Assembly: GCA_038063735.1 (NCBI GenBank)
Contig: JBBTUN010000004.1
Coordinates: forward strand, 190,921 to 254,920
Reading direction: 5' to 3'
Source of the DNA: Patescibacteria group bacterium
GTDB taxonomy: Bacteria > Patescibacteriota > Microgenomatia > Curtissbacterales > GWA2-41-24
Length of the DNA: 64,000 nucleotides
In this document: positions 56,672 through 63,714 of the stretch, one piece after another
Numbering within the stretch: the stretch's first letter is position 1
How the letters are laid out: every line of letters starts with the position of its first letter
Translations under genes and position numbers: made by a program
Notes under the pieces: generated by a model
What the model was told of the DNA's origin: nothing
What the model saw: the letters and a program-made list of their open reading frames with translations, nothing else
The model's database searches: none

Positions 56672-57766
56672 ATGTTAATAAAACCGGACGTTAATAGATT
56701 CGCAAAAATAAAAGTTTTAGGCATAGGTGGCGGTGGAACTAACGCCCTAAACTCCATGATTACCCAGGCGCAAATTCAAGGTGTAGATTTCGTGGCGGTT
56801 AACACCGACCAACAGCACTTGCTAGCATGTCTGGCCCAAACAAAAGTCCAGATAGGGGACGGTTTAACTAAAGGTTTAGGAGCCGGTGCCAATCCCGATA
56901 TCGGCAAAAAGGCGGCAGAAGAATCGCTGGAAAGAATTAAAGATGTTGTAACTGGTGCCGATATGGTTTTTTTAACATATGGTGCCGGTGGAGGCACAGG
57001 CACAGGCGCCGGCCCGGTTATCGCCGAAATGGCTAAAAAGCTGGGCATCCTAACAGTTGCAGTTGTTACCAAACCGTTCGGTTTTGAAGGGACCCGAAGA
57101 ATGATTGTTGCAGAGGACGGCATCGACAGTCTCAGGGACAAAGTAGACACCCTTATTGTAATTCCAAATCAAAAACTCCTGGAAGTTGTCGACAAAAATG
57201 TGTCGCTCTTGGAAGCATTTAAACTCGCAGACTCAATTCTTTCCCAGGGTGTACAAGGCATTTCGGACATCATAGTTATGCCAGGTCTAATTAACGTCGA
57301 TTTTGCAGATGTCAAGGCCATTATGACAAACGCTGGCTCAACTTTAATGGGTGTAGGAACCGCCTCCGGAGAAAACAGGGCAACAACGGCAGCCAGAACA
57401 GCCATTGCTTCACCGCTTCTGGACTCATCAATAGATGGCGCCAGGGGAGTCCTCTTCAACATAACAGGCGGCTCGGATATGGCCATGAGTGAAGTTGACG
57501 AAGCCGCAAAAGTTATCACCAGTCAGGCAGACCCGGATGCCCAGATTATCTTTGGGGCTGCCATCGACGAAAAGTTAATCGATCAAATAAAAGTAACGGT
57601 AGTAGCAACCGGTTTTGACGAAACTAGAAGAAAGTATGTCCAGATAACTCCGCCAGACCTTTCCGTTAGCATGACTCAGCAACTGGAAAACCAAGACACC
57701 TCAATCGATGGCCAAATAGACGAAGACGAATTCGACGTTCCCACATTCCTACGTCAGATAAGATAA
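56672..57766 (+). CDS. ftsZ: Cell division GTPase FtsZ
   Basis: IKVLGIGGGGTNALNSM and tubulin signature GGGTGTGAGPVIAE. Confidence 0.95.
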   Translation: MLIKPDVNRFAKIKVLGIGGGGTNALNSMITQAQIQGVDFVAVNTDQQHLLACLAQTKVQIGDGLTKGLGAGANPDIGKKAAEESLERIKDVVTGADMVFLTYGAGGGTGTGAGPVIAEMAKKLGILTVAVVTKPFGFEGTRRMIVAEDGIDSLRDKVDTLIVIPNQKLLEVVDKNVSLLEAFKLADSILSQGVQGISDIIVMPGLINVDFADVKAIMTNAGSTLMGVGTASGENRATTAARTAIASPLLDSSIDGARGVLFNITGGSDMAMSEVDEAAKVITSQADPDAQIIFGAAIDEKLIDQIKVTVVATGFDETRRKYVQITPPDLSVSMTQQLENQDTSIDGQIDEDEFDVPTFLRQIR

Positions 57767-57906
57767 TCTCCTTTTAAAATCTAAAAAGAAAGTTAAAACT
57801 AAGGTAGTTCATAGTGTTAGTTACTATAACACGCTCCCTCGTCGCAACAAGACGAAAAATAGGGGAGTAGAAATGTGGATTTGCTTGTCCCAATAGGATA
57901 AACCTA

Positions 57907-57935
57907 TTGACAAGCTCTTAGTTTTTTGTTAATAT
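57907..57935 (+). promoter_or_regulatory. Near-consensus sigma70 promoter upstream of integrase
   Basis: TTGACA (57907-57912), 17-nt spacer, TAATAT (57930-57935); AGGGAG RBS 57986-57991. Confidence 0.5.
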
Positions 57936-57994
57936 GAGAATTAATCCTCGCAAGATTTTTCTCAACCACAAGCTACTCCCCAAAAAGGGAGTAA

Positions 57995-59011
57995 ATGCAC
58001 ATACCAGAAGAAGATTTTAAGTCTTATATAACTATCAAGCTCAGTCTCGCCCCAAATTCTGTGCGCCACGATATGAGCAGGCTTAGGCTAATTAACCAAT
58101 GGTTTTCAAACAAGGAACTCACAAAAGAGAACATCGAAAAGTATTTTTACGAGAGAAAACAAGATGGCCTTGTAAATAATTCACTTAATACTTACCACAC
58201 AGTATTTCGACACATTCAGGGCTACTGCAAGGATAGAGGTCTTCAGGCTGATTTTTATGAGGGCTTCAAATCTTTTAAAAAGACAAAACCACACATTGTA
58301 ATTTTTACAACAGAGGAGATAGAGAAGTTGTTAAGCATAAAACTTTCTTATGGTCATTTTCGAGGCAAAGACGTGTCCTTTTTAGATTTCCGCTATAACA
58401 CTCTGACTAGGTTTCTAGCAGAAACAGGTTGCAGGTTCGGAGAAGCAGCTACATTAAAAATTAAATACTTGGACTTGGGCAGCGGCAAAGCAACTTTTGT
58501 AGATACTAAAACGAATGAGAATAGAACGGCCTTCATTACAGGACCACTCATTGCAGGAATCAAACAAATTACAGATGGTTGTGATCCTGATGATTACGTC
58601 TTTCGCAACGCCGTTGAGAAGCCTATGAGACCCCAAGAATATATTCCAGATTTAAAAAAGCGGGCTACTGCGGCTGGCATTTTGAATTTGAAAAAAGTAC
58701 ACCCACATAACTTTAGACATACATACGCAACAATGCTGCTTGAGGCTGGTGTGCAAATAACAGAAGTGTCAAAACTTTTAGGTCACAAAGATATTCAAAC
58801 AACCTACGATACTTATATGCATCTGGCTGATCGAACATTACAAAGAGCTGCGATGAGGTTGCCATTGATAAGGGGGAGTGTAGCGCCTGTTGAGACTATC
58901 AAAACAATAAAAGAAACACTAGAGAACTTCCATTTGGAGAGTGATCAGCGCTTTGTTTATATAATTTCCGAATCCGACGGTGAATTTAAATTCTCACTAA
59001 GAGCAAAGTAA
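57995..59011 (+). CDS. Tyrosine site-specific recombinase / phage-type integrase
   Basis: Box I TGCRFGEA (Arg), HNFRHTYAT (H-x-x-R), LGHKD, catalytic Tyr in TYDTYMHL. Confidence 0.85.
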   Translation: MHIPEEDFKSYITIKLSLAPNSVRHDMSRLRLINQWFSNKELTKENIEKYFYERKQDGLVNNSLNTYHTVFRHIQGYCKDRGLQADFYEGFKSFKKTKPHIVIFTTEEIEKLLSIKLSYGHFRGKDVSFLDFRYNTLTRFLAETGCRFGEAATLKIKYLDLGSGKATFVDTKTNENRTAFITGPLIAGIKQITDGCDPDDYVFRNAVEKPMRPQEYIPDLKKRATAAGILNLKKVHPHNFRHTYATMLLEAGVQITEVSKLLGHKDIQTTYDTYMHLADRTLQRAAMRLPLIRGSVAPVETIKTIKETLENFHLESDQRFVYIISESDGEFKFSLRAK

Positions 59012-59109: not shown

Positions 59110-60513
59110 TTAAATTTCACCTTTTTCTTCGGCCTTTTCAAAATCCTCTATAAGCTTGTCTGAAGTGTATTTCTGTAAACTCGCTGGTAACTCTTCGGGT
59201 GGAATAAACCTCACAGGGACAAATTTGCTTGCAGCTGCAACTGAATTTGACACTGCGCTTCTTATTTCTTTACATTGATCTGAAAGAAACCAACTTAGGT
59301 CTTCTTTTAAAGTTATGTTTTTCTCTTGACCAGTAGCCCCGTATCCCTCGTTAATGTCTACGATACCCAGCACTTTTAATGCCTCCATTTCCTTATGCGC
59401 AGTTGTGTGTGAACAGTTAAGTGTTCCCATAACTTGATTTGTGAGTAGTTCGCCGTTGTTGTCTACAAGAAGTCGAAAAAGGTTTGTTCGGGTCCTAGGA
59501 GCACTGTCAAGAGTCACATCGATGACTAATGCTAGGTCACCTTGGTCAATTTGTCTTCGGCCTGTAGCCACAGAGTGCCCCCTGGCCAAGTTATAAAGCA
59601 GTTGATTTATTCTATCCGGTCTTTCAATAATTGGATCAGAGGACTTATATGATTCTTTGTCCTCCTTAACCCAACGATCTTCCCAAACATTAATCGTCGC
59701 CCTTAGCCTTGCAAGCAGTTTTGCACATCGACCGATAACAACTAAAAATTCCCGCGGGTCCTTAGACTTGTCCCAGTCTATACCGTTAGGTAGAGCATTC
59801 CAGATTTTATCAACGTGTTCTCGCGTAGCAGTTTTGCAAAGCTCCTGCTTTTGCAACCAAGACGCGCTTGTTAGCTGATCTGCTAGCTCATTTTCATCTT
59901 TTTCCTTACTTCTTATTTGGCTAAAAAATAACCTAGAACCAAGATTTCCTGACATTTTCCAGACACGAGGAGGAATCGGTGTAGAACCAGCAAGGAGCAT
60001 AAAGTTATATTCGCCCTTGTAACCTCTTTTGCCGTGTAAACCACTATCAAGTTCTAGTCCCTCACCATCAAGAACCCTGGTTAAAACGCCCAAGTTTTTA
60101 AGAAGATCTTCCTCGCGCTCTCCAAAGATTGTCGCTAAATCACGAATAATCAATACTTTGTTTTTAATTTTAGGCAGTAGATCTATCTCCTCTAGTTTCT
60201 CTTTTTTCACATTAGCTGCGTGAGAAACAAATGAAGCAGGGGTGAAGTTGTCTGTTGTGTAAACCAATTCTGTTAAATCTGAAAACATATTTAAAGTGAT
60301 GGTCTTGCCAGCACTAGGCACGTCGACAAAAACTAACGCAAAAGGGTTTTTAATATCGTTAATTTTCAGCTGTGATATAACACTAAGACCGATCTCGGCA
60401 GGCCTTACGAGATCGGGAAAGTTATTTTCTATTGTCTTAATCCAAGCCGTATATTGGTTTGTATTTTCCATAATAAAAACTCCCGTTTCAGGCGGAAACC
60501 CAAACGGGAGCAT
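59110..60513 (-). CDS. P-loop NTPase, putative mobile-element replication/primase-helicase-associated protein
   Basis: Deviant Walker A VDVPSAGKTITL and Walker B-like KVLIIRDL; 467 aa; adjacent to integrase. Confidence 0.4.
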   Translation of the reverse strand: MLPFGFPPETGVFIMENTNQYTAWIKTIENNFPDLVRPAEIGLSVISQLKINDIKNPFALVFVDVPSAGKTITLNMFSDLTELVYTTDNFTPASFVSHAANVKKEKLEEIDLLPKIKNKVLIIRDLATIFGEREEDLLKNLGVLTRVLDGEGLELDSGLHGKRGYKGEYNFMLLAGSTPIPPRVWKMSGNLGSRLFFSQIRSKEKDENELADQLTSASWLQKQELCKTATREHVDKIWNALPNGIDWDKSKDPREFLVVIGRCAKLLARLRATINVWEDRWVKEDKESYKSSDPIIERPDRINQLLYNLARGHSVATGRRQIDQGDLALVIDVTLDSAPRTRTNLFRLLVDNNGELLTNQVMGTLNCSHTTAHKEMEALKVLGIVDINEGYGATGQEKNITLKEDLSWFLSDQCKEIRSAVSNSVAAASKFVPVRFIPPEELPASLQKYTSDKLIEDFEKAEEKGEI

Positions 60514-60650
60514 TTATCCGCCTGAATTTTCTTAATGAAATCACGACTAAAGGTTAAAGATCAAAGTTGAAAAGTTAAAAAAACGAGGCTAGTTTTTTCT
60601 GTTATATATTACGACTTATAAAAAATGTAGAAAAAATTAGTATATTGAGA

Positions 60651-61073
60651 TCAATTTAAAACACCGATATTTATAGGAGTTAAATATATCTTTTTATTCT
60701 TAGTTTTTAATTTATAGCCAATCATTTTGAGTTTTTTATTTATATTGATAATTAACTGTTTACCATTGTTGACACCTACTTCTTTTTTAATATCCACAAT
60801 GCTCAAGGTTGTATCTCCTGCGATTTTTAAAATAAATTTACTATGTACTTTGTTTAGGCTAGTAAGTTTCAATTTACCCTTAAGGGTGCTTAAAAACAGC
60901 TTTTTTCTTTGTCCCGGGGTGGTTATAGATTCAATGCTTAAGTTTAAAGCTTTAACTTCTTGCTTTAGTAATTCAATGTCGATAGCTAAACTTTCTAGTG
61001 ATAGATTTTTATAGTTAGCTCCGATAGACATCAAAACAGCTATTTGTGCGGACTTGAATGTATTCTTATCCAT
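60651..61073 (-). CDS. Hypothetical protein (Lys-rich, AT-rich gene)
   Basis: 140-aa ORF, no recognised motifs. Confidence 0.25.
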   Translation of the reverse strand: MDKNTFKSAQIAVLMSIGANYKNLSLESLAIDIELLKQEVKALNLSIESITTPGQRKKLFLSTLKGKLKLTSLNKVHSKFILKIAGDTTLSIVDIKKEVGVNNGKQLIININKKLKMIGYKLKTKNKKIYLTPINIGVLN

Positions 61074-61088
61074 ATTTAATCTTGATTT

Positions 61089-61673
61089 TTAAGGCTCATC
61101 GATAGTATCTACAGAATCAAGTGAATCAAGTGCGTCTACCATCTCTTCATAAGTCTCACCTGAATAGTATTTTGCTTTTCTAATGTCACTATTGGCTTGT
61201 TCAATATTATCGTTAGCTTCCTGCAAAGCAGTCTTTAAGTTCCCAACCTGCGTATCTAATTCATCAGCTTCTGATGATATCTCGTCATATTCGTTATACC
61301 AGCCCTTTGCTGTTTTCCCATCATATTCGCCAATCGAACCTAAACCATTTCCTACACTACTTAAAAACCACCAACCAATCAGTAAAGCAATACCGATAAC
61401 AAAAATGAGTACACCCCAGGTGAAACAGATCCCAACAATCTCAAGCGTCTCGTCGCGTTTGTGGACCAGCCAATCTCTAAATCGCCCCTTAGGCACGTTG
61501 CTAATCGTGATGCCAGCCAAAATAATCCAATATACAGGTTTCAAACCATAATTAAATAATAGTGAAAATAATAAAAAAGTGGCCAAAGATAAAAAAGCAA
61601 TCCACTGAAACCAATGGTTAATTGTTTCTTTTTTTGATCGGACAATTGGTCCTGGGTTATCTTTATTATTCAC
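61089..61673 (-). CDS. Hypothetical membrane protein with C-terminal acidic coiled-coil region
   Basis: 3 predicted TM helices then heptad-like region LDTQVGNLKTALQEANDNIEQANSDIRKAK. Confidence 0.3.
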   Translation of the reverse strand: MNNKDNPGPIVRSKKETINHWFQWIAFLSLATFLLFSLLFNYGLKPVYWIILAGITISNVPKGRFRDWLVHKRDETLEIVGICFTWGVLIFVIGIALLIGWWFLSSVGNGLGSIGEYDGKTAKGWYNEYDEISSEADELDTQVGNLKTALQEANDNIEQANSDIRKAKYYSGETYEEMVDALDSLDSVDTIDEP

Positions 61674-61684
61674 TTAATTTACTC

Positions 61685-62317
61685 CTACATACACTTAATC
61701 CCCATTGGGACACCGCCGTTATTCAAGCAATCCATCCTCAAATCGAATTCCAAATCTTTCTGCTTTTTTTCAATGACATCAATTTTAGACTCAAGATCTG
61801 TTGTATCAATACTCTGAACAGGTGTTTCGTAGGTGTAATTATTAGTTGGCTTGCTTTTTTCGGCTAAACCCTGCTCCCTTAAGGATTCAAAGTAAACTAA
61901 ATCTCCCTTATTTAGATCAAGATAAATTGCGAATCCACGAATTGTAGAATTTCTGGATTTTTCAACAAGAAATTTATCAATCTCTGCTTGTGAGTAGTTC
62001 TGCTTGAGTGCGTTCTTCACAAATGGTTCTGTTTTACTCGGATCCAGTTTTTCCCCAAATTTTTCGTACATTTCACTTTTGGATTTGGAGTTAGATGCTG
62101 AATAAACATACGCCGCAACTTTGAATGCCCTATCAGACGGGTCGGGAACTACTAATACGGCTGGAGTGCTATTTTCAGTTACAACCGCTGAAATTGCTTG
62201 ACCGCTCGAGGTTTTGTCGTCTTTTCTCAATATTTGAAATCTCCAAAATACAAAAGCTCCTAGTAATAACGTAATGGCAAGAATAGTGATTGTTTTCATA
62301 ATTCCTTTGATAAACAT
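61685..62317 (-). CDS. Hypothetical secreted or membrane-anchored protein
   Basis: N-terminal signal/TM MKTITILAITLLLGAFVFW; C-terminal CLNNGGVPMGIKCM. Confidence 0.3.
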   Translation of the reverse strand: MFIKGIMKTITILAITLLLGAFVFWRFQILRKDDKTSSGQAISAVVTENSTPAVLVVPDPSDRAFKVAAYVYSASNSKSKSEMYEKFGEKLDPSKTEPFVKNALKQNYSQAEIDKFLVEKSRNSTIRGFAIYLDLNKGDLVYFESLREQGLAEKSKPTNNYTYETPVQSIDTTDLESKIDVIEKKQKDLEFDLRMDCLNNGGVPMGIKCM

Positions 62318-62329
62318 AAAAAGTGACTA

Positions 62330-63025
62330 TCACCAATAATTGGGTGGGGAGCTACCTAGTATTTTCTCCTCACCATAATTTGATGTCACTTTAACTCCAA
62401 AAATTGGGAATTGAGGATTACCCCTATTAATCGTGCATACGCTTCCATTGATTAGATCTGTTCCGTCACCGTTATTGCTTACTACTTGCCCCCCACCAGA
62501 ACTAGATTCGACAAACTTACATTTTTGAAGATTCTTATTGGCATTTATTGTCACAGTATTGCCATCAGTAGTCATACTTGCTTCAAATGTGGAATTATCA
62601 GGAGATGATGTCGGGCTTGGGTTAGGTGATGAACTGCTGCTCGGGGTAGGGCTTGCACTTTGTGTATTATTTGAATCCTGAGAATTGCTGGCTGAGTTTG
62701 AGGTAGCGTTATTGTTGCCGTTACTGGTCTGATTATTGTTTGTCTGGTTATTCGGTGAAATAGATGGGGTTGGAGATTTTTTGTTTAAAATTGGGCTTGA
62801 GGTCGGGCTTGGGTTTGTATTTTGAGTTGATAATCCTGCAACCTCTCCGTTAATGTTCTCAGGCACATTGGTTTCTACAATTTCCTGTTTGTTTTTATGT
62901 GATATAGAGTTGTAAAGAAAAATTCCACTAGGAATCGTGCCGATGCTAATTAGAAATGCAAGGACAAACAGTTTAGCCTTGATTCCCAGTTCAAGGAAAT
63001 AACTTTTTAATTTCAAAATAGACAT
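62330..63025 (-). CDS. Hypothetical secreted protein with long Ser/Asn/Pro/Thr low-complexity linker
   Basis: N-terminal TM/signal, ~100-aa S/N/P/T-rich region, C-terminal Cys-containing domain. Confidence 0.3.
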   Translation of the reverse strand: MSILKLKSYFLELGIKAKLFVLAFLISIGTIPSGIFLYNSISHKNKQEIVETNVPENINGEVAGLSTQNTNPSPTSSPILNKKSPTPSISPNNQTNNNQTSNGNNNATSNSASNSQDSNNTQSASPTPSSSSSPNPSPTSSPDNSTFEASMTTDGNTVTINANKNLQKCKFVESSSGGGQVVSNNGDGTDLINGSVCTINRGNPQFPIFGVKVTSNYGEEKILGSSPPNYW

Positions 63026-63102
63026 ATTTGTTTATTGGGGCAGAAGAAATGGCAGGAGATTTTGTATTATAGGTTTAAACCAACCTAAAATGCAAGTAGT
63101 AG

Positions 63103-63154
63103 TTTGGCACGGATGCCAAAGACATTTTTGCTCCAATTTGGCATAAATGCCAAT
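63103..63154. promoter_or_regulatory. Twin palindromic operator candidates TTTGGCA-N4-TGCCAA(A) in the divergent region between the XRE gene and the minus-strand operon
   Basis: TTTGGCAcggaTGCCAAA 63103-63120; TTTGGCAtaaaTGCCAA 63137-63153 overlapping the XRE start codon; centres ~34 bp apart. Confidence 0.45.
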
Positions 63155-63383
63155 GATGGCAATAAAAGTTGACGAAAGAGCTGTTAAAAAGCAGTTTGGG
63201 GCTAAATTAAGGCAGTTAAGGCAAGACAGGAAGCTTTCACAAGAGGGAGTGGCACTTGAGGCAGGACTAGACTTAACAACTATTAACGAAATAGAAATGG
63301 GAAGCCGAAACCCCTCTCTATTAACTATAGCTAAAATTTCAAAAGCCTTAGGGGTTAAGATTAAAGATGTTTTCTCTTTTTGA
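63147..63383 (+). CDS. XRE-family helix-turn-helix transcriptional regulator (Cro/CI-like)
   Basis: LRQLRQDRKLSQEGVALEAGLDLTTINEIEMGSRNPSLLTIAKISKALGV matches HTH_XRE pattern. Confidence 0.7.
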   Translation: MPMMAIKVDERAVKKQFGAKLRQLRQDRKLSQEGVALEAGLDLTTINEIEMGSRNPSLLTIAKISKALGVKIKDVFSF

Positions 63384-63408: not shown

Positions 63409-63714
63409 TTATTCATCATTTTGCTTAGGTATGTAGATCACAGGCATACTAAATAATTCAGCTTGCGATGTTAAATCCGTTGACTGTTTGGGCATACCGT
63501 CCATACGGTTCATTATCTCTTTCATAGCACTCACATTTCCTTTTAAAGCCTGATTCACCAAGCTTTTGGCAACTAACTCTTTTATACTCTCTCCGCTGTT
63601 TACTTTTTTCTCTACTGCTTCCTGAAGAGTGCCCAACCACGACCAATCACGCTTTGGCGCTCCCTTGAGATTCCCACTTTGTCCTTTTCGGAATGATGTT
63701 GAAGATATAGCCAT
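63409..63714 (-). CDS. Phage-associated DUF5681-like protein
   Basis: N-terminal FRKGQSGNLKGAPK resembles the F-KGQSGNPKGRPKG signature of DUF5681 proteins. Confidence 0.4.
   Translation of the reverse strand: MAISSTSFRKGQSGNLKGAPKRDWSWLGTLQEAVEKKVNSGESIKELVAKSLVNQALKGNVSAMKEIMNRMDGMPKQSTDLTSQAELFSMPVIYIPKQNDE

Follow-up and report, generated by a model that had tools for sequence, protein, structure and literature searches.

The window analysed here, a stretch of 64,000 nucleotides (nt) within a 276-kb contig of a metagenome-assembled genome of the Patescibacteria (Candidate Phyla Radiation, CPR; proteins MEK7581113-120 at NCBI), ends in a small integrated element. In this element the gene of a 75-residue XRE-type helix-turn-helix (HTH) regulator faces a divergent operon for the proteins P6, P5, P4 and P3, hereafter the cargo. 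Two palindromes, O1 and O2, stand between them. Both are real and beyond chance, and they are almost certainly the operators of the XRE protein, a pairing established as far as sequence comparison allows. We infer, with a probability of roughly 0.6, that the XRE protein, a relative of the controller (C) proteins of restriction-modification (R-M) systems, binds O1 and O2, regulates its own gene and controls the divergent membrane-protein operon. The features on which this reading rests are:

63103-63120, no strand: operator O1, TTTGGCAcggaTGCCAAA, the site distal to the XRE gene; a dyad with arms invariant in 11 loci
63137-63153, no strand: operator O2, TTTGGCAtaaaTGCCAA, the site proximal to the XRE gene; TGGCATAAATGCCA, which includes the TAAA spacer, is invariant in 11 loci
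63156-63383, plus strand: XRE/HTH_3 regulator, 75 aa, monocistronic, start codon invariant (Pfam HTH_3, 8e-15)
63119-63147, plus strand: proposed XRE promoter with a -35-like AAGACA, a 17-nt spacer and an extended -10-like element, as read from the sequence
63066-63095, minus strand: putative cargo operon promoter, TTGCAT (63095-63090), 18 nt, TATAAT (63071-63066)

The initial annotation of this DNA had reported twin near-identical palindromes about three helical turns apart in the gap between the XRE gene and the minus-strand operon. Both statements hold: the centres of O1 and O2 lie 34 bp apart (~3.2 turns), in a gap that measures 121 bp with the longest open reading frame (ORF) and 130 bp with the conserved start of the regulator. 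The proposed form of the dyad is an 18-bp TTTGGCAT-N2-ATGCCAAA. Statistics within the window are modest. The motif TTGGCA-N4-TGCCAA with at most one mismatch matched only O1 and O2 in the 64 kb, against a shuffle expectation of 0.34, and two or more such matches anywhere in 64 kb occurred in 8 of 100 shuffles. Among the 22 perfect 6-N4-6 palindromes of the window, O1 and O2 are the only pair with the same arms; block shuffling produced a same-arm pair within 60 bp in only 2 of 200 runs. Within the 17 kb scanned, the element contains no additional site at up to two mismatches; the single match with two mismatches, at ~69650, lies outside it, past its right end. The comparison between loci is decisive, and the conservation of the pair is the strongest evidence for it.

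Related loci (designated L001 and so forth) were reached by two independent routes, homology to the XRE protein and a scan for the operator pair in DNA only. The latter covered 185,579 genomes and 241 million metagenome records with the pattern TGGCA-N4-TGCCAA-N19-TGGCA-N4-TGCCA and returned 19 loci, nine of them directly upstream of an XRE homologue (47-69% identity) and the remaining ten being unrelated tandem repeats. The protein route led to XRE homologues with 68-75% identity on short metagenome contigs (L005, L006, L007-9 and L010). An identical XRE protein (100%) was found in L001, a mosaic element at the same site of a related genome, the ftsZ gene of which is 79% identical at the nucleotide level. 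Altogether, 11 distinct loci carry the operator pair at the same spacing before an XRE homologue (47-100% identity). The invariant columns of their alignment are TGGCA, ATGCCAAAGAC, T-TGGCATAAATGCCA and ATG; the spacing of 34 bp, AAAGAC after O1, TGGCATAAA and the position of the ATG 3-4 nt past O2 are kept throughout. The 4-nt spacer of O1 varies (CGGA, TAGA, TGTA, TAAA and TATA), unlike that of O2, which is always TAAA. Variable as well are the 13 nt between the two sites and all sequence to the left of O1.

Across these loci the XRE gene is the sole constant neighbour of the operator pair. Recombinases are of the tyrosine or the large serine type, replication genes are different or absent, and the divergent genes differ. 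Because the XRE gene alone is constant in 11 otherwise differing loci, the dyads are assigned to it as its operators. All XRE homologues from operator-pair loci share the recognition-helix region G-[LM]-DLT-[TS]-x-NEIE-x-G-x-R-x-P. A natural control is provided by L037, in which a different small XRE protein with another recognition helix occurs in a similar layout with GGCTAG repeats in place of the TGGCA dyads. In that locus (82-1874), a gene for a 73-aa XRE protein is divergent from an operon for transmembrane (TM) proteins of 107 aa and 80 aa, a P5-family protein and an 89-aa P4-like protein, and GGCTAG occurs three or four times in the intergenic region. Of the 11 operator-pair loci, eight are low in GC, and in all eight a TM protein is the product of the first divergent gene. 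The three other loci stem from genomes with a GC content of 54-58% and have a CheY-like receiver gene in the divergent position: in L022 (1062-1730), L026 (410-1079) and L020 the operator pair and an XRE homologue (47-54% identity) face the gene of a single-domain receiver of this kind. The presence of the pair at such a GC content indicates that the cassette has crossed between very different lineages.

Judging from its sequence, the XRE protein is a homologue of the C proteins. Among all PDB sequences, its nearest solved chains were C.BclI (2b5a, 5.3e-10) and C.AhdI (1y7y, 7.2e-10), both with ~40% identity, and the third-best match reached only 3e-5. The second palindrome had been thought to overlap the start codon of the regulator. 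This applies only to the ATG at 63147, which O2 covers and which is followed by an in-frame TAA in L007-L010; the ATG at 63156, invariant in all 11 loci, lies 3 nt past O2 and yields the 75-aa protein MAIKV..., in agreement with the NCBI call. No Shine-Dalgarno sequence fits between O2 and this ATG. Inside O2 stands TGgCATAAA (63139-63147), read as an extended -10 element, and 17 nt upstream of it AAGACA (63119-63124) may serve as the -35 element; it overlaps the end of O1 and is invariant though it lies outside the dyad. Since both AAGACA and TGgCATAAA are invariant, O1 and O2 appear to sit on the promoter of the regulator itself. The ATG follows the -10-like element by 9 nt and transcription is predicted to start at 63153-63156, 6-9 nt past that element; the XRE mRNA is probably leaderless or nearly so. 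Autoregulation by the XRE protein is well supported by the geometry of the predicted sites. The Cro/CI-like layout that had been proposed along with autoregulation did not stand, as a single 75-aa HTH protein is present, nearest to the R-M controller proteins. Several other candidate readings of the region were rejected: a third half-site TGGCA at 63157, which relatives do not keep; a sigma-54 promoter at TGGCAC-N5, for which the -12 element is absent; and O1 as a terminator, since relatives do not keep its T-run and covariation is absent from the stems.

Pairs of palindromic operators and weak promoters, often with leaderless mRNAs, have been described for C proteins, many of which are encoded in mobile elements and not in R-M systems (PMC2632904). 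The XRE protein resembles C.AhdI, C.BclI, C.PvuII and C.Esp1396I as a single-domain HTH protein of ~75 aa with a pair of palindromic operators placed at a constant distance before its gene, the distal one beside a weak -35 element and the proximal one over the core promoter, and with a start codon so near the sites that a leaderless or nearly leaderless mRNA is predicted. In contrast, the operator TTTGGCAT-N2-ATGCCAAA differs from the C-boxes, which are of the GACT/AGTC type (motifs of PMC2632904). The dyads are separated by 34 bp with variable 13 nt between them, whereas the C-box is one 35-bp unit with a conserved GTG and flanking trinucleotides, and the ATG lies 3-4 nt from the proximal site and not 17-18 nt as in C proteins. 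Moreover, the XRE gene is monocistronic, faces a membrane-protein operon and has no adjacent endonuclease or methyltransferase gene; no R-M domain was detected by Pfam, NCBIfam and PADLOC in the element proteins within the window or in the 10 kb to its right. The XRE protein was not classified as an R-M controller because both the C-box architecture and the R-M linkage are lacking.

The right operator (OR) of phage lambda offers a second comparison. The cI mRNA transcribed from PRM is leaderless. As with PRM and PR under cI and Cro, the back-to-back promoters share repeated dyad operators, and the regulator's own promoter has one site near -44 that may activate it and another over the -10 element that would repress it. 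Unlike lambda, with its three sites, the element has two, and the core of the divergent promoter is free of operators. There is one regulator, consisting of the HTH domain only, with no Cro counterpart and no C-terminal oligomerisation or cleavage (S24) domain, and therefore no RecA-type route of induction is evident. Neither Pfam nor PHROGs detected a second HTH gene among P3-P6, and the first divergent gene encodes a membrane protein.

The genes for P6, P5, P4 and P3 are separated by 11-30 nt, which indicates one operon. Its predicted transcription start near 63059 would give a 34-nt leader without a Shine-Dalgarno sequence. The promoter hexamers are kept in the five closest loci while their flanks diverge, for example in L001, L005 (TTGCTT), L006 and L007 (TTGACA). 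This operon is most likely the target of the XRE protein, because the XRE gene is monocistronic and no other site occurs in the element. Repression is more likely than activation, since the cargo promoter is already near consensus; the sign of the regulation is inferred on this ground. The initial annotation held the cargo to be probably repressed under normal conditions, a claim only partly supported because the operators in the window are clear of the core of the cargo promoter. In its favour, the regulator has no other target and O1 overlaps the divergent promoter in relatives. In L020, L022 and L026 the TTGGCA of O1 is placed on the divergent strand 17 nt upstream of CATAAT, and the divergent ATG lies only 19 nt from O1 in L010 and 5 nt in L017, so that the divergent promoters of the latter two must overlap the operators. 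A second leftward promoter, TTGGCA-18-(T/A)AAAAT, is possible across both operators in the six closest loci only.

The four cargo proteins are encoded as follows:

62330-63025, minus strand: P6, 231 aa, TM anchor at the N-terminus (NGEVAG motif), linker rich in Ser/Asn/Pro/Thr and a head of 80 aa with two Cys
61685-62299, minus strand: P5, 204 aa, N-terminal TM anchor, helical ectodomain and a C-terminal C-x-x-NGG-[VI]-P-x-G-x-x-C loop
61089-61673, minus strand: P4, 194 aa, 2-3 TM segments and, at the C-terminus, an acidic coiled-coil tail with a predicted outward orientation
60651-61073, minus strand: P3, 140 aa, Lys-rich, cytoplasmic, no TM segment; its only relative, in L001, is 79% identical

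The cargo had been described as a Ser/Asn/Pro-rich, a Cys-containing, a TM coiled-coil and a Lys-rich protein without recognisable homology. The description is accurate apart from the start of P5, which is most likely at 62299, where AAGGA stands 5 nt upstream, and no convincing match was obtained in Pfam, PHROGs, NCBIfam or PADLOC. P6 matched nothing in Pfam, PHROGs, NCBIfam or the PDB sequences, and its only match in PADLOC was a low-complexity one to PD-T4-6 (1.7e-4). The N-terminal 90 aa of P6 are common to proteins of L007/L008 (45% identity) and L005, the heads of which are unrelated. An exhaustive HMMER search of 1.84 billion representative proteins gave the P5 family ~10 relatives at E <= 0.001; one of them, a weak match to a protein of 5,446 aa, was excluded from the family alignment, in which the Cys pair is invariant. 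P5-family members are encoded beside the switch described here (L001 and L006/L012), beside a different XRE gene (L037) and, without an XRE gene, beside a tRNA gene (L033). In a word-indexed search of 5.8 billion proteins, only the L001 orthologue was returned for P5 and likewise for P3. P4 gave only sub-threshold coiled-coil matches in Pfam, PHROGs and NCBIfam and a coiled-coil match to PbeC in PADLOC (0.012); its residues 87-158 show a weak similarity to small L037 proteins with TM segments (E 0.002), and the P4-like L037 protein also matches a protein of L010 (E 1e-5).

Structure prediction with AlphaFold2, a check proposed with the initial annotation, was informative for one of two proteins. 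The P5 model (mean pLDDT, the predicted local distance difference test, 77) found no fold match in the PDB or BFVD, and the P3 model (pLDDT 47) was too poor for a fold search. Residues 75-133 of the latter are arranged as helix-helix-helix-strand-strand, which at low confidence may represent a C-terminal winged helix, and P3 is probably, again at low confidence, a DNA-binding protein rather than cargo. P3 had no match in Pfam, PHROGs, NCBIfam, PADLOC or the PDB sequences. No virion, holin, endolysin or spanin family scored above threshold for P3-P6 in PHROGs and Pfam, nor did PADLOC yield a convincing defence-system match. The cargo is accordingly not made up of phage structural or lysis proteins as judged by PHROGs and Pfam and by the comparison of the P5 model with BFVD and the PDB. 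P4, P5 and P6 appear to belong to tiny Patescibacteria-only families that recur beside small XRE genes, in the case of P5 as seen in the large protein collections. The cargo is intriguing but not interpretable on present data.

In the mechanism that we favour, XRE dimers would bind O1 and O2, exactly 34 bp apart. The dimer at O2 would shut off the XRE promoter and provide negative autoregulation, and the dimer at O1, centred near -44, could stimulate this weak promoter as in the C-protein and lambda PRM circuits. The target would be the divergent P6-P5-P4-P3 operon, which would continue through an attenuator-like leader into a replication-like gene. Several points weigh against this mechanism. 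AAGACA and CATAAA are weak compared with the sigma-70 consensus, and promoters of Patescibacteria are poorly characterised. The spacing of 34 bp places the dyads ~86 degrees out of phase, a less than ideal arrangement for side-by-side cooperativity, and its invariance could instead come from the geometry of the -35 and -10 elements. The operators do not have the architecture of C-boxes (one contiguous 35-bp unit with a GTG spacer), and R-M genes are absent near the XRE gene. On the cargo side, the edge of O1 lies 8 bp upstream of the -35 element and O1 is centred near -52, a poor position for simple steric repression, so that repression in the window would have to act from upstream; the cargo promoter looks strong enough for constitutive activity. 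As to function, P4-P6 are most likely accessory outward-facing envelope proteins that serve exclusion or surface remodelling, an assignment of low confidence.

It is possible, if doubtful, that the XRE protein sets only its own level or acts as an activator, and that the cargo is expressed constitutively from its near-consensus promoter while the element is integrated. The arrangement would then resemble the exclusion and conversion genes that lie beside the repressor in temperate phages of Gram-positive bacteria. TTGCAT-18-TATAAT is conserved and free of both operators, C-protein relatives activate at the distal site, and the content of the cassette varies between elements with an identical XRE protein, as expected of accessory genes of the resident state. 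Yet a regulator with itself as sole target is implausible, the divergent promoter must overlap O1 in several relatives, and the operon leads toward a replication-like gene, which is normally silent in integrated elements. It is quite unlikely that P4-P6 are core parts of a particle or transfer machinery, either the envelope and attachment proteins of a capsid-less virus of the membrane-vesicle type or a minimal transfer apparatus, with the switch taking a decision similar to that between lysis and lysogeny. The element does combine an integrase and a putative replication ATPase, and genes for a capsid, portal or terminase were not recognised in it; in every low-GC relative the corresponding position is taken by one or more membrane proteins, and the combination of variable heads with a conserved anchor is reminiscent of receptor-binding proteins. 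However, the set differs between elements: in L001 P4 is missing and P6 is replaced despite 95% identity of the integrase and 100% of the XRE protein, P5-family genes also occur without the switch, and neither IMG/VR (XRE protein, P5 family and ATPase) nor BFVD (structure of P5) returned a match. Very improbable is a role of the dyads as binding sites of another factor, such as replication iterons, arm sites of the integrase or sites for P3, or as RNA hairpins or terminators. The dyads do lie in an element with its own replication gene and integrase, and O1 followed by GACATTTTTG scored as terminator-like. Against this, the loop varies but the arms are invariant and show no compensatory changes, L015, L017, L022 and L026 do not keep the T-run after O1, and the sites persist where replication genes are unrelated or absent, where recombinases are of the serine type and where P3 is lacking.

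Control of the cargo by the XRE protein remains the preferred reading. The switch itself is an ordinary autoregulated XRE regulator with paired operators in a mobile element and holds no surprise for the specialist; its clean phylogenetic support and the orphan cargo are the points of interest. For the uncultured and genetically intractable Patescibacteria it provides a clean regulator-operator pair with evolutionary evidence and a precise prediction of a leaderless, operator-embedded promoter, and the pair could find use as a portable genetic part. With it, the controller-protein family gains a new operator motif and a context free of R-M genes. The cargo defines three very small orphan families of surface-exposed proteins, carried along by mobile elements in a phylum that relies on cell-surface contact; for the present, their practical value is that of a pointer for later work. 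A far-reaching and unlikely extension is an undescribed class of small Patescibacteria-specific integrative elements, in which a recurring cassette of P6-family proteins with swappable heads, P5-family proteins with the Cys loop and P4-like small TM proteins would remodel the surface of the episymbiont, and in which a repurposed timing switch of the R-M controller type would jointly control cassette and replication. If true, the cassette could serve to exclude rival elements or phages, to attach to the host bacterium or to provide a capsid-less virus-like particle with its envelope.

In temperate phages of Gram-positive bacteria, the lysogeny modules contain Sie- and Ltp-type membrane proteins between integrase and repressor. 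The element shares with them small, variable, membrane-anchored and outward-facing proteins between an integrase and a repressor-type regulator. There is no similarity in sequence or structure, however, the genes are divergent from the regulator and upstream of a replication-like gene, and virion genes are lacking. Actinomycete integrative and conjugative elements (AICEs) of the pSAM2 type comprise ~10 kb with genes for an integrase, for replication and for a repressor, along with several small membrane proteins whose function is unclear. Size and gene set are similar here, but an FtsK/TraB-like translocase is absent and the integration site is not a tRNA gene; Pfam and NCBIfam scans revealed no homology to AICE gene families. 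An XRE-type toxin-antitoxin pair was considered and rejected, as the XRE gene is monocistronic and the Phd/ParE pair 3 kb to the right forms a separate module.

Most of the window consists of plus-strand housekeeping genes, the last of which is the division-cluster gene ftsZ (56672-57766). The integrated element, with a core of ~8.4 kb, sits after ftsZ at the end of the window in the order ftsZ, integrase, replication-like ATPase, P3, P4, P5, P6, XRE, DUF5681 and onward. Its remaining features are:

57995-59011, plus strand: tyrosine integrase at the left end of the element, directly after ftsZ (Pfam Phage_integrase, 1.6e-28; phrog_1, 1e-48)
59110-60471, minus strand: putative replication or partition ATPase, 453 aa (ATG at 60471; 453 or 467 aa), with a Walker-A-like VPSAGKT and a possible C-terminal winged helix, both motifs read from the sequence
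60472-60650, minus strand: conserved 179-nt leader between P3 and the replication-like gene, with interleaved stems CAGGCGG/CCGCCTG and CTCCCGTTT/AAACGGGAG followed by a U-run
63409-63714, minus strand: DUF5681 protein, 101 aa, convergent with the XRE gene and next downstream of it (Pfam DUF5681, 1.4e-12)

The U-run of the leader ends 3 nt before the ATG, and the Shine-Dalgarno sequence GGGAG lies inside the second stem. The leader gave a terminator-like match and an RNA fold of -39 kcal/mol (z = -2.9). Over the aligned stretch its mean column identity to the L001 leader is 88%, and the match extends up to the start codon of downstream genes that are themselves unrelated. Its appearance is that of a terminator/antiterminator or of an element that attenuates translation of the replication gene. 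The putative ATPase had no match in Pfam, PHROGs, NCBIfam, PADLOC or the PDB sequences. A near-consensus promoter, TTGACA-17-TAATAT with TG, precedes the integrase gene (57907-57935 of the window), and a 9-bp hairpin (57973-57994) ends just before the integrase ATG.

No recognisable virion genes (capsid, portal or terminase) were detected among the element proteins by Pfam and PHROGs scans, and IMG/VR scans with the operator pair, the XRE protein, the P5 family and the ATPase gave no relatives. Rfam yielded no match in the element or in L001, and the 64-kb window contains no tRNA gene. To the right, contigs identical to the window continue with three genes of unknown function, a conserved non-coding block of 156 nt and the Phd/ParE pair with more unknown genes; beyond the right arm lie host genes for a glyoxalase and CutA1, which also flank the related element in L001. 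The 156-nt block at the right end of the element (L030, 7503-7658; ~66.06-66.21 kb, past the end of the window) is 92% identical to L001 15212-15367. A second copy (L030, 5449-5574), 71% identical, lies further right after the Phd/ParE module. The two copies suggest an end containing the attachment (att) site and the tandem accretion of a second element. The block had no Rfam match and shares no repeat with the gap between ftsZ and the integrase gene, and no att direct repeats of at least 12 nt were found between this gap and the right flank.

Whether the same module recurs in homologous elements had been raised with the initial annotation; the operator pair and the XRE gene are constant, and the cargo is mosaic. 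L001 retains the integrase (95% aa identity) and the XRE protein (100%) but lacks P4 and has an unrelated 112-aa TM protein in place of P6, and an AAA_25 protein unrelated to the window ATPase takes the replication position. Nucleotide identity between L001 and the window amounts to 96% in the gap between ftsZ and the integrase gene (57767-57994), 91% in the integrase gene and 94-96.5% over operators and XRE gene (63103-63383); it is far lower in ftsZ (79%) and in the remaining genes of the element (73-84%). The points at which homology is lost coincide exactly with O1 and with the start codon of the replication-like gene, which indicates modular recombination with junctions at regulatory sites.

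The right arms of the relatives carry further genes, some of them defence-like. That of L001 (11146-13077) encodes a TIR-like protein (a sub-threshold Pfam match) and a membrane-anchored SNase/Excalibur nuclease, and that of L005 (2904-3434) an Mrr-type endonuclease. In L017 (10516-11929) a protein with a LexA DNA-binding domain is followed by a ClpP-like SDH protease, a pair that could be an anti-repressor-type module. Lastly, the elements in L012 (3921-5435) and L017 (4756-6396) are bounded by a large serine recombinase, the ORF of which has a C-terminus that reads tRNA-like (...GWDSNPR...). This suggests integration of these two elements into a tRNA gene, instead of the position after ftsZ with a tyrosine integrase that is found in the window.

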